The notes below the pieces were generated by a model. It had not been told where the DNA came from, made no database searches, and saw only the letters and a list, made by a program, of their open reading frames with translations. Positions 3,897 to 59,901 of a DNA stretch of 64,000 nt are shown here, one piece after another. The DNA comes from Eledone cirrhosa. Its lineage: Eukaryota. Position 1 is the stretch's first letter, and each line of letters opens with the position of its first letter. A program made the position numbers and the translations under genes. The stretch is taken from NCBI GenBank assembly GCA_964016885.1, contig OZ024743.1, positions 295,492,001-295,556,000 on the forward strand, given 5' to 3'.

Positions 3897-4008
3897 GAAG
3901 TAGTTCCAAAACAGTAAGTTCACTAACTGTTGTAGAACTACTATCAAACTCGTCCCATGGACTGAGTGGTCTACTACTATCGATATAACGCTCCAGTGTT
4001 CTACTATG
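3897..4008 (+). mobile_element. Mini PLE-type insertion (short inverted arm + 3' tail), same family as 46921-48636
   Basis: CTCGTCCCATGGACTGAGTG..CTACTACTA..CCAGTGTTCTAC matches the tail at 48578-48636. The first ~25 bp are an imperfect reverse complement of the next segment. (TA)n flanks both sides. Confidence 0.7.
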
Positions 4009-6009
4009 ATATATATATTCAGAAACGAAATATATATATATATATATATATATATATATATATAAATATATATATATATCGGTGTTGTGGTTGTTATTAA
4101 AATTTGGGTTTCTCTCCCTTCTAGAAGTAGTATCTAAATCCTTTTCATTCCACACCCTTCTTAAAATAAGAAAATTCCAAATTAGATAATGTCATTTTAT
4201 ATATTGCTAAAAAGATGGGCCAATTATTTCTGCAATCGCAATGAGTATGGTGAACTGTGTCATTCAGATTTGAACTTGAGATACACTAAAACTATAATAA
4301 GAAGCTACAAGAAAATCTACATCGACGACAATGAATGCAGCAGTCAGAAGGTCAAATATATTAGTAAAACCGTTTTTATGTCAGCAATTAAGAAGAAAAT
4401 GGGATAAAGCAGAAGCAACAGCAACAGTAACATTCACAAAATATTAGTTAATTGGGACCATTTCCAGCTTCGAAGTGTGAGTGAGTGGCGCTGCAGCAGG
4501 GTGCTAAATATACATCAATAATAATTTACATACGGCCCATAACTTTTATGAATGCAGAAATAAAGATTTTGTGGAGAGGGACTAAATACGTTAAGGTTGG
4601 TTGTTGAGTGTTTTGTCAGTACCATACAGGACTGCATGATTGATGGCAGAGTTAACTAAGACCACCTCCATTTCTAGTAATACACTGTATAGTCTTTGTA
4701 GCATAAAAAGGGACGCGTAAATATAATTATCATTACTTCTTGTGTATGTGTGACACAATCAGTAGAAACTGTTCAACTGGACATTCACTGATTCGCGACG
4801 ATTATTTGTGATTAGGATTCAAATTCTGTTGTGGTTGGCTCGAGCTTTCATGTTGATAAAGTAAATAGGAATCATATACTGGTGAGGATTTAATTGAATC
4901 TACCTTGCAACCAACTACCATCTCGTCCAGGCATAAGATTGTAACATGTTGTCCCTTAGAGCTAAACGAAACCGGGATAATTTCTTGTCAAGATGAAGCT
5001 CTAGGCTTACGAAAGACTTTAAACCTATTTCATATATATTGGCTGCAAATTTACAGAAACGTTATAGTGCCGGATTCAAAGTCTCGGTTACTGCTCCGAC
5101 TCTCTACACACTCAATTCAAGTTTCTCCGCGGTTATCTTTTCCTTTCATTCTATTGGGGTCTACAAATGAGTTAGCAGTTCAGGGGAGACTGATTTGCGG
5201 AATTTTTCAAAGAGTCAGATAGGATATTTTGCTCTATCTGATTCGGCTTTGTGTGTCCTGTGTTCAAATCCCGCCTGCTGTCACCATAAAAGCGTTGTAG
5301 CTTATGTCAGGAGATACGAGCGGGATGACCAAGTTAAACATAGTTTCCTTGCTCTAGCCTGATGATCTGCTTCTCTCCCATTACTTTCTCATATCTTCAT
5401 CACCGTGTACAAAATATTTTGTGTTCATATCACACCATTTTCAACTTTAAATTTATTCTTCTAGAGCAAATAAAATCAAACCTCATGTAGTCGATCATTG
5501 CCATCCCTCAAAATATATGTCCGTGTGAAAATGCTATAAAACAATTTTTCTCATTAAAACTATATCTATGAGTATATGGTAATTTTCGTTATTTCACCTA
5601 AAATTATTTCCTACACATAACCTTTAGCTGCAATTCCAATGGAAATAAACTCAACAGAATTCAATATTGAACAGGGTTAACAATGGTCATTCTTTATAAA
5701 TGTTTTGTTCTAAATTTAACCTTTTGACAATTGAATTTGGTTATTCCCTCTCAATATTCAACGTAAAGGAACTTTGCATTCTCACAGAATGAAGCCATTT
5801 TATAACGTTCCTTTAAAATGTCTTCGAGGCAACAACTCCTTCACATTTCTTCATAATTTATAATTTACTCATCGCTGCAATCCAGATATTCTGTACTAAA
5901 TAATAATGTAACAATCTTTTCCCGCTCCCAAATAGGAACAAAATTTCAACATTCCTTCTAGGTCATTATATTTCCGCTTATAATTCAAAATCGAAATAAT
6001 CAATAAACG

Positions 6010-6300
6010 CAGGCATGGCTATGTTATTGAGGAGTTCGTTTCGCAATAGCATGGTTTCGAATTCAGTCTCACTGAGTAGCACCTTTGGTGCGTGTCAACA
6101 GCCACTGTTACACGAGTGAAATTTATAGAAACTGTGAGTGTGTGTGCGCATGTTTACTGTTTGTGTAAGTCCCGTGATTTAGCTGCTCGAGAAAACGGGA
6201 TCAATAAAATGAATATTAGGGTCGATATAATCAACTATATCCCTTGAAGACAGTGGCCCAGCATGACCGCGCTCCAATGACACAAACGGATATACGAATA
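6010..6300 (+). mobile_element. Degenerate tRNA-derived SINE
   Basis: It has a GCAGGCATGGCT head, a B-box-like GTTTCGAATTCAGTC, a central GT run, GGGTCGAT and a CCAGCATGACCGC tail motif. A similar head lies on the minus strand near 35975-36065. Confidence 0.55.
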
Positions 6301-7056
6301 ATAATATATGTATGCCGACCTTTCAGTGAGAATTTAATTTGACATTGCTGAGAATATAAATACAAACTATAGATTAAAAACTGGAAAACAAATGAAGCCA
6401 AAATAATAAGTATTTAAAACATCTTCAACCAACCATTCAAAATTCTTGCCACAGCCCTTAAGTCTTTGATATAATTGCTTTTACTGTTAACTTTCTCTCT
6501 TTGTTTTGAGGTTTTTTGGTGCATCATCGTCATGGTGGGCAAGTGAAAACATTTTAAATCTCATTGGATAATAACATAAGAACATTTTGGTTCTTGCCTT
6601 CAGCTTAATCTTCATTACAGATTTTTATGGTATCGAAACAAAGGGAAAATATTTAACACTTTCATGCATGTATAAACATATGCACACCAACTCGTATATT
6701 CATAATTTTCTTCTTTTCTACTGGTTTCAATCATCAGAAATGCTGGGTGCATCATGTTTAGGAGATTTTAGTGGACAATATTCTTTCCACAATTGTTTAA
6801 AAATGTGGTACTAATTTTATATGATAAACTGCTAAGTTACTGGGCTAAACGAACAATAATTCCACTTTAGGAAAAAGGCCAATAATATGGAGGCGTAGGG
6901 AAAGCCGATTATATTGACTTTAGTTTTTACGGGTACTTTAATTTATCAACCACAAAAAGATGAAAATAAACAAACAATAAACGTAACTAAACCCACTCAC
7001 ACGCCCACAAACAACTCCATACACACACGTGCATGTAAGTATTTATATGTGTGTGA

Positions 7057-58339: not shown

Positions 58340-58687
58340 ATATATTTATATATATATATATATTATATATATATATACATATATATTTATATATATATAT
58401 ATATATATATATTTATATATTTATATATATATATATATATATATATATTTATATATATATATATATATTATATATATATATACATATATATTTATATATA
58501 TATATATATATATATATATTATATATATATATATACATATATATTTATATATATATATACATGTATATTTATATATATATATATATATTATATATATATA
58601 TACATATATATTTATATATATATATATATATATATATATATATATATATATATATATATATATATATATATATATATATATATATAT

Positions 58688-59525
58688 GAAAATAGGGAGA
58701 AAGAGACGATTATTAGGAAGAAAATATATTTTTTCCTTTTTTGTTTCTCTCACTCTTTTTTCTGGGTTAGAAAATGATTAAAACGGAATGTTTTACTTTG
58801 TGTTAAGGTATTAGTTGATTTATTTATTATTTAACAATGGCATTTATTTATCTAATTATATATTTAATTATTGTCTATTACCGGTTTCACCATTTTTATG
58901 TATTATCAAATGATAGTGAAATGTATTAGTGTGGTGTCGCACATGTTAAACAGAAGGTGCAGAAAGAATAATGTTATTTACAAACAAGGTTTATGAAGTG
59001 AAAAGAAAAAAAGAAAAAGGAAAAAAAACGTGCATAATGTAGAGTATAAAAAGTCAATCTGGAAGAAAAAATAATGTTATTTACAAGCATAGTTATTGAC
59101 GTTAAGCAGATCAAAATGTGTTAATATAGCAAGAGTTGTTAGTTGATCCATGATTCTATGATAGAGGCAAATGGTGGAGTGAGGTTTGATATGATTTCCC
59201 TTTTTAGAGAGTTAATATATAGGGTGAAGCAATTCTTGCTGGATGATATTTAATTTATTTAAGAAAAAGGAGTGGGTAGGGTGTGAGGGAGGTAACTCTT
59301 GTAAATGTTTGATTGTTTGTTGCAGTTTTAGATTAGTCCGATTTTTAGAGCATTAAGTAGGGGTTGGAATTTATTAATCATTTTCTAACTCAGAAAAAAG
59401 AGAGAGAGAAACAAAAAAGGAAAACAATATAATTTTCTTCCTAATAATCGTCTCTTTCTCCCTGTTTTCGTATATATATATATATATCCTAACTCGTGTG
59501 CCTCCTCTCCACATTTTATTATTTT
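58688..59525. mobile_element. Foldback PLE-type insertion (long minus arm, ~95-bp plus arm, short tail)
   Basis: 58688-58781 is approximately the reverse complement of 59376-59469. A degenerate TTGATAA..GAAACCGGTA HHR lies on minus at ~58875-58916. Confidence 0.65.
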
Positions 59526-59551
59526 ATATATATATATACATATATATATAT

Positions 59552-59901
59552 ATTAGAAAGTGAGGTTTTTTTTACAAAATGAAAAATAACCGAGGTGTCC
59601 TACACGAGTGAAAGTATAAAGAAAAAGAGATGAAATCGAAAATGCAACTGGAGTCTTATTTAAAAAAAATATATATATAAGGAACTTTACCGGTTTCGCA
59701 GTTCTTCTGCTTTTCAAAAGGTGAGTTGAGATGGAGGGTCTGTGGTTTTTCTCACAGATGTGAGAAAAACCACAGACCCTCCATCTCAACTCACCTTTTG
59801 AAAAGCAGAAGATCTGCGAAACCGATAAAGGAACCAAATAAATATATATATATTTTTTTTAAATAAGACTCCAGTTGCATTTTCTATTTCATCTCTTTTT
59901 C
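59552..59901 (-). mobile_element. Foldback PLE pLTR insertion with a U3-A8 variant HHR in each arm
   Basis: The palindrome is centred at ~59758 and the tail is 59552-59617. The HHR reads CCTT-TTGAAAA-GCAG-aagaw-CTGC-GAAA-CCGR-TA-AAG at 59794-59831 (+) and 59685-59721 (-). Confidence 0.8.

Follow-up and report, generated by a model that had tools for sequence, protein, structure and literature searches.

An AT-rich stretch of 64,000 nt from the genome of Eledone cirrhosa (contig OZ024743.1, positions 295,492,001 to 295,556,000; hereafter the window) carries repeated insertions of Penelope-like elements (PLEs) and of a short hammerhead-bearing repeat, each consisting of two arms of one element set back to back between (TA)n runs, with the RNA 3′ ends of both arms facing outward. 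One arm halts at a short site (S) and the opposite arm extends 26-145 nt beyond S to a tail end (L). This tailed arm occurs on either side and may be reduced to a stub. Searches of the 3.0-Gb assembly showed that the pairing of one short with one tailed end is near-strict. The elements and their layout are already known, and what is newly counted here is this near-strict S+L pairing together with the haplotypes shared by the two arms. Judged from these sequences, it is probable that the element protein nicks both target strands and that each DNA end primes at a different preset site, likely on one RNA template.

Two outer ends and their pairing

The outer ends were examined in six of the nine element families (A-I) by taking, for each family, the first 30 matches in the genome to an anchor placed upstream of S (180 copies; the anchors lie 1-43 nt upstream of S, and copies ending further upstream are invisible to this test). 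The ends were sharply bimodal, with 82 at S and 86 at L (168/180), while four copies continued into a tandem unit and eight ended elsewhere. The original prediction, made from the letters of the window, had claimed fixed outer ends within each family and had named genome-wide scatter as grounds for abandoning the idea; the ends proved to be fixed genome-wide, without such scatter. In family H, S is spread over ~15 nt. For family C, a non-coding 310-bp tandem unit with 19,212 exact 25-mer matches and a hammerhead motif in each unit, forward-strand end matches across the genome numbered 630 for L and 613 for S. The anticipated enrichment of copies in (TA)n was also borne out, as (TA)4 was present at the end of 170/180 copies compared with 18% of random 42-nt windows from the same loci; for family A alone, 28 of 30 anchor-chosen ends were (TA)n insertions. 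Three interrupted flanks tentatively suggest a target-site duplication of ~20-30 nt, pure (TA)n flanks being uninformative in this respect. Very often the end of an older PLE from another family serves as the (TA)n target, so that elements stack in the same TA tracts (window positions 39260-48640 and 56938-59901).

Pairing was counted from internal-anchor searches, because BLAST-type searching favoured copies containing the S end. For family C, contig C1 was surveyed over its first 169.5 Mb, and every pair of facing ends no more than 10 kb apart was S+L (48/48, with no S+S and no L+L; 27 and 21 by side), and 56 ends were unpaired. Twenty consecutive unpaired ends comprised 13 two-armed copies, all S+L, six one-armed copies, one of which has an apparent 7-nt tail stub, and one copy running into a gap. 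Of 13 family C loci collected by an internal anchor, 12 were two-armed and 12/12 were S+L. The 52/52 S+L count in the larger family C set is not independent evidence of pairing, since 40 of these loci were preselected as S+L. In families A, B, D, E and G, 96 adjacent inverted alignments were obtained, of which 64 were classified (three ends being completed by hand from overlapping loci), two were dropped as local duplicates and 30 were unclassifiable (microsatellite matches, truncated or interrupted ends). The classified pairs were S+L in 62/64 cases, S+S in two and L+L in none. Inspection by eye gave 14 S+L loci and one possible non-adjacent L+L in family H, and three S+L loci and two without a tail on either side in family I, in which S itself is a (TA)n run.

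Shared haplotypes and possible routes to two arms

In family C, the two arms carry the same haplotype in 48/49 of the insertions in which both arms span diagnostic sites, compared with 360/2352 (15%) between insertions, with 20 haplotypes in total. At locus L173, flagged as an exception, the haplotype changes after unit 2 in both arms and in register, and locus L160 has a one-unit variant common to both arms, again in register. Further family C loci were concordant in 11/12 cases. Most one-unit variants in family C are restricted to one arm, which fits the expectation for a repeating monomer template with later mutation. In family A, an arm scores 144 against its own partner and 124 against other arms, and the partner was best or tied in 7/12. 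Family C arms contain up to 27 near-identical units. In the very long arms at L145, L148 and L149 (15-27 units) a few variants recur in non-adjacent units, and part of the length of these arms may come from later expansion.

The extents of the arms are equally informative. In families A, B, D, E and G the S arm exceeds the L arm in the 5′ direction by more than 20 nt in 19/62 S+L insertions, the L arm lies wholly within the tail in 7/62, and the arms overlap in 55/62. In family C, S is the longer arm in 20/52 insertions, by up to 19.0 versus 3.2 units. In such insertions neither arm is contained in the other, so both need an RNA template. The S+L pairing, the shared haplotypes and the S arms extending beyond L retain from the original two-primer idea the priming from both target ends.

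The inner junctions had been expected to be dispersed; this is the case in family C, where they are scattered around the unit, but in families A, B and G they cluster at small palindromes or the hammerhead. Junction overlap in family C has a mean of 4.2 nt (41/52 with 0-20 nt) against a null of 0.75, a difference that alignment ends may inflate, and overlaps of 15-17 nt occur at an internal inverted repeat. In family A, 12/58 inner ends fall in one 26-nt bin (neighbouring bins hold 2 and 2) that contains a 7-nt palindrome at the start of the hammerhead core. The hot spot in family G lies at an 8-nt near-palindrome, and the junctions of family B cluster at and directly upstream of the hammerhead, where the family B anchor lies and biases the count. 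Such clusters would arise if same-sense complementary DNA (cDNA) ends are joined via self-complementary sequence.

In the mechanism proposed here, both start sites would be fixed by a protein-RNA complex that is asymmetric and probably dimeric, in line with the prediction for an anole element (PMC11167929), and each freed DNA end would prime reverse transcription, one at the tail base and the other at the tail end. Where a TA motif is present in the RNA, pairing of the (TA)n primer would do no more than tune the register. Both cDNAs would copy the same upstream sequence by strand displacement, with a circular route for the 310-nt RNA, and their 3′ ends would then be joined through short self-complementary sequence, giving rise to palindromes and to the hot spots at the ribozyme. 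Failure of one primer would leave a one-armed or stub copy. The wider form of this proposal, in which several PLE clades would share obligatory two-ended priming by one asymmetric complex with a single RNA (linear-tandem or circular) and two preset sites, and in which both target ends would copy this one molecule by strand displacement, with up to 27 rounds on a 310-nt circle, is more tentative, and we give it slightly less than an even chance.

Several observations weigh against two-ended priming on one RNA. Locus L184 is S+S with mirrored flanks, and L081 is S+S as classified by script, yet resembles an L arm split by a later insertion; two of the five two-arm family I loci are tailless on both sides, and L356 is possibly L+L. 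At L376 a variant is out of register, being present in all seven S-arm units but only in inner units 5-6 of the L arm. The shared haplotypes are equally expected from two RNAs of one source locus. Family C arm lengths correlate weakly (rho 0.35, p 0.011), and the arm-length difference is below one unit in 13/52 insertions versus 10.9 after shuffling. Inner junctions are symmetric within 15 nt in 21/64 cases, and a fold-back step would give the same. Finally, PMC11167929 saw no difference in start site between the strands in bulk.

For the pattern at L376, a template switch, a change of template during copying and a fold-back joining step are candidates. Lock-step elongation by two enzymes on one circle was not supported by the arm-length figures (13 versus 10.9 of 52, rho 0.35). 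A route in which one concatemer is copied once and then broken at S was not supported for family C.

In the mechanism originally suggested, one (TA)n primer anneals at the RNA tail end and the other at an internal TA/TATA motif. The motif is present at S in part of the families: the alternating TA run there is 8 nt in family C, 6 nt in A and 4 nt in G, and 1.3%, 0.8% and 8% of positions, respectively, have an equally good motif. Family I, which has an internal (TA)n at S, also has apparent S+S copies, as annealing would allow. However, the run at S is only 2 nt in families B, D and E, where 46-66% of positions equal it (chance level), and at L it is 1-3 nt in families A, B, C and D, those with known continuation; in family C, 31/52 short ends lack the base directly preceding the 8-nt motif and so begin across a mismatch. 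Since the ends are equally sharp in families with and without a TA motif, annealing cannot be the main selector, and the claim that the sites are generally found in this way was not upheld; annealing probably sets the register where a TA motif exists. Annealing alone would also permit S+S copies via a good motif, yet 0/48 family C pairs are S+S. Tandem copies run through the tail end, which is therefore not an RNA 3′ end, at odds with the suggested priming at the tail end of the RNA, and it is internal in both tandem and circular templates. As a full explanation annealing is thus unlikely, and so, to a similar degree, is the use of a separate RNA at each target end, both from one source locus, with priming forced to different sites (e.g. 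sequentially). Two RNAs would accommodate the weak arm-length correlation without lock-step and the out-of-register variant at L376, and would remove the need for two enzymes on one RNA. Against this, at least 20 haplotypes of the 310-nt RNA exist, yet the arms agree in 48/49 insertions, and the haplotype switch at L173 and the one-unit variant at L160 are in register in both arms.

Self-priming or fold-back, in which antisense RNA (PMC3846280) or the first cDNA folds, is copied back and halts at S, would account for the shared haplotypes and in-register variants, and is consistent with the symmetric junctions (21/64 within 15 nt), with the phase-matched junctions of family C (8/52 within 10 nt, p 0.02) and with the junction hot spots at small palindromes. 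It requires S to be nested in L, whereas S exceeds L on the 5′ side by more than 20 nt in 19/62 insertions, L lies wholly in the tail in 7/62, and S is longer in 20/52 family C insertions. These non-nested arms refute fold-back as a general route and equally disfavour the antisense self-priming of PMC3846280 in that role, which leaves this explanation a poor prospect; fold-back may act as a joining step. It is very improbable that the hairpins arose as artefacts of the assembly or the library, or through later rearrangement of ordinary insertions. The junctions of the window itself were not seen in the raw reads examined, and AT-rich palindromes are error-prone, but the arms show 1-18% divergence and a fixed pattern of asymmetry. 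One opposite-strand family C joint was present in raw reads of three samples from another study (98, 110 and 133 reads, each set from one start), the same samples show TA loose ends at S and L, and 109 raw reads end at the family A S site and then continue as TA.

Element families and the insertions of the window

Family A has 2,325 exact genome-wide matches to a 27-nt anchor and a unit of ~3.18 kb in partial tandems. Its protein, P0001, is an open 784-aa frame in one natural copy (L085:5483-7834) with reverse transcriptase-type motifs read by eye. P0001 has RWK, DKT, a CxCx5C linker, no CCHH, CxxC and CxH around conserved E and N residues, and GIY-YIG at the C-terminus, features that match those described for the Hydra clade in PMC8557442. 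On these sequence features family A is classed as a Hydra-type endonuclease-positive PLE. The layout of endonuclease-positive PLEs is likewise present, with a partial tandem (pseudo-long terminal repeat, pLTR), an inverted copy and a one-sided tail, and the claim that the insertions are PLEs is thereby supported. The GIY-YIG in the family A fragment of the window gave a weak Pfam match below the cut-off (E 6.5e-4), and whole P0001 gave no Pfam match and no PDB match; its Atlas look-alikes score 0.96-0.99, and part of the members carry HTH_animal, GIY-YIG and RVT_1. The endonuclease end of family D is of canonical type, with CxxC inside the GIY-YIG core and later histidines, and family D was rejected as a member of the Hydra clade on these features, absence of CCHH being the criterion. 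The coding sequence of family B consists of decayed endonuclease fragments. Open reading frame (ORF) or endonuclease evidence covers families A, D and B; families F, G, H and I are known here from the layout of their insertions.

Family C, with its short unit, is by sequence non-LTR (long terminal repeat) retrozyme-like, a class with a 150-450-bp non-coding tandem unit and a type I hammerhead per unit. Hammerhead core motifs were read by eye in families A, B, C, G and H and are candidate ribozymes. An Rfam scan of the window (E up to 5) had no hammerhead family among the 150 of 376 matches listed, only microsatellite or palindrome noise. Among the haplotype sites of the 310-bp unit (n=33; L131-L183), nine are A>G on the sense strand and three are T>C, the polarity being provisional; the excess of A>G could be an RNA-editing imprint.

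All 13 starts listed in the original prediction are genuine two-arm insertions between (TA)n runs, distributed over nine families where about eight had been claimed, and the microsatellite-masked window contains 26 local inverted repeats compared with none in each of five shuffled controls. The two-arm layout stood, but the proposed order of an inverted arm followed by a tailed arm was not general, as the tailed arm is on the left at 41290, 45715, 56939, 58267 and 59552. Tails reach 145 nt, whereas the proposed lower limit (35-145 bp) does not hold for family C, with a tail of 26-34 nt. The insertions at 22322, 56939 and 58267 are not hairpins, since their tailed arm is a stub wholly within the tail (~55, 12 and 10 nt). 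By family, the window copies start at 39261 and 56939 (A), 3897 and 46921 (B), 41290 (C), 14571 (D), 22322 and 45715 (E), 52041 and 58267 (F, studied in its three window copies only), 59552 (G), 26427 (H) and 58688 (I). Their features are as follows.

3897..4008: family B short copy; on the left an S arm of ~22-28 nt, on the right the L arm, which has a 65-nt tail
14571..15043: family D; palindrome 14569-15004, near-perfect (93.7%), with a 39-41-nt tail to its right; the GIY-YIG endonuclease encoded by this family has an internal CxxC
22322..22402: family E; the left arm is an S arm of ~26 nt, the right arm is entirely within the tail
26427..26619: family H; palindrome 26430-26539 including the hammerhead core, ~80-nt tail on the right
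39261..39367, minus strand: family A S arm, 108 nt; end CATTCTT, then TATA
39368..41120, plus strand: family A L arm, 3′ portion of the putative Hydra-type PLE, with the ORF end and GIY-YIG domain (~39348-40178), then the 3′ untranslated region, hammerhead and 143-145-nt tail
41290..44380, minus strand: family C L arm, consisting of the 310-bp hammerhead repeat in 9.97 tandem units; the tail is the left end
44380..45349, plus strand: family C S arm, 3.16 units; the end is the ATATATAT motif; inner junction overlap 1 nt
44556..44613, plus strand: candidate type I hammerhead motif of one family C unit, read by eye against the consensus and without an Rfam match; CUGAUGA, stem II, GAAAC, a short palindromic stem III and GUA
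45715..46628: family E; the tail (45715-45812) is on the left, followed by palindrome 45813-46634 (92.2%) and, on the right, the S end TTAATATTG, then TA
46921..48636: family B; the S arm covers 46921-47537 and the L arm 47538-48636, the latter carrying decayed endonuclease coding sequence, a hammerhead core and a 65-nt tail
52041..52457: family F; on the left an S arm of ~36-41 nt, then the L arm and its ~55-nt tail
56939..57057: family A; 12-nt tail-end stub on the left, S arm of 109 nt on the right
58267..58337: family F; ~10-nt tail-end stub on the left, S arm of 62 nt on the right
58688..59524: family I; S arm 58688-58781, then the L arm, in which an element-internal (TA)n run opens the tail
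59552..59901: family G; the left end is a 63-nt tail, followed by palindrome 59615-59907 around an internal 8-nt near-palindrome, S end on the right

Other repeats were also noted in the window. A further palindrome (~15739-16058, 82%) within 15700-16129, with a ~70-nt tail ending in (TA)n, apparently has the same layout. One-armed copies of families G and F terminate at the tail end in (TA)n (14345-14535 and 63488-63729), and a short family is represented by two copies that are 80% alike with (TA)n on both sides (27336-27440 and 48660-48764). A palindrome of 177 bp (94%) at 25418-25594 lies without (TA)n flanks. Another repeat family has several copies bounded by (TACA)n and (TA)n (15044-15789, 32688-33950 and 38032-39253), and a direct repeat of 269 bp (92%; 9297-9564 and 10135-10396) surrounds a segment ending in (TAGA)n, between TA runs.

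Relation to known systems

In L1 twin priming both target ends prime on one RNA and the inverted 5′ arm is joined by microhomology; the internal site is variable and the arms are non-overlapping parts of the RNA. The insertions described here differ in their fixed second site and their usually overlapping arms, and L1-type twin priming was rejected on these two features (55/62 overlapping, S fixed). In family C, only 6/52 L arms come to a stop no more than 10 nt from S (p 0.14).

For PLEs, the inverted copy, the one-sided tail and (TA)n targets have been published (PMC8557442, PMC3846280, PMC8969392), and (TA)n insertion of the Hydra clade was already reported in PMC8557442, which calls the origin of tandem and inverted PLE insertions undefined. 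In these accounts of complex insertions (Craig et al. 2021, PMC8557442; Arkhipova et al. 2013, PMC3846280) the tail need not be present and measures 30-40 bp, compared with 26-145 nt here, and endonuclease resolution or antisense self-priming is named as the cause, whereas the non-nested arms described here argue against self-priming; relative to both papers, the one-tail rule is here counted as near-strict and the arms share a template. The likeness of family A to the Hydra clade (PMC8557442) lies in its protein motifs, hammerhead and (TA)n insertion, whereas Hydra clade units are generally under 3 kb and the family A unit is ~3.18 kb. Family D, with its internal CxxC and not of Hydra type, obeys the same S+L rule. 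The two-arm layout of PLEs is not treated in the available part of PMC13282606. Neither a strict pairing rule nor PLE twin priming was found in the literature searched, with the 2005/2006 PLE reviews and supplements outside that search, so that an earlier statement may exist.

The closest experimental system is PAc, a Poseidon element of Anolis (Frangieh et al. 2024, PMC11167929), for which both strands were cut and extended in vitro from two internal start sites that bound the tail, no homology was needed at the start site and a dimer was predicted. The two tail-bounding internal starts, the extension of both strands, the AT-rich target and the predicted dimer all resemble the present case, but the passages available of that paper do not tie the two sites to the two ends of an insertion or to an inverted layout. 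The PAc start site is non-homologous to the target, whereas S has a TA motif in some of the families here; that annealing is not the main selector fits the non-homologous internal initiation of PAc.

Family C resembles animal non-LTR retrozymes in that its 310-bp tandem unit is non-coding and includes a type I hammerhead motif (PMC7229834). A circular template and mobilisation by PLEs have been proposed for retrozymes (PMC7229834, bioRxiv 10.64898/2026.07.22.740005), and one passage of the latter favours local tandem expansion. Back-to-back two-arm arrays with PLE-type S and L ends are not described in the available text of either paper, and no statement on two-arm retrozyme arrays was found in the literature searched, on which unread reviews and supplements may bear. 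The arrays of family C thus provide genomic evidence for a hammerhead retrozyme copied by PLE machinery from a repeating template, which those two papers propose but, in the text available, do not show.

The rule of one short and one tailed end with shared templates yields two sharp predictions, namely that the start sites are paired and non-independent and that both arms come from one RNA. The one in vitro system (PMC11167929) leaves the later integration steps open, and the pairing rule bears on them. If the proposed reaction is true, the PLE tail, the inverted pLTR and the arrays of animal retrozymes would be footprints of one reaction.

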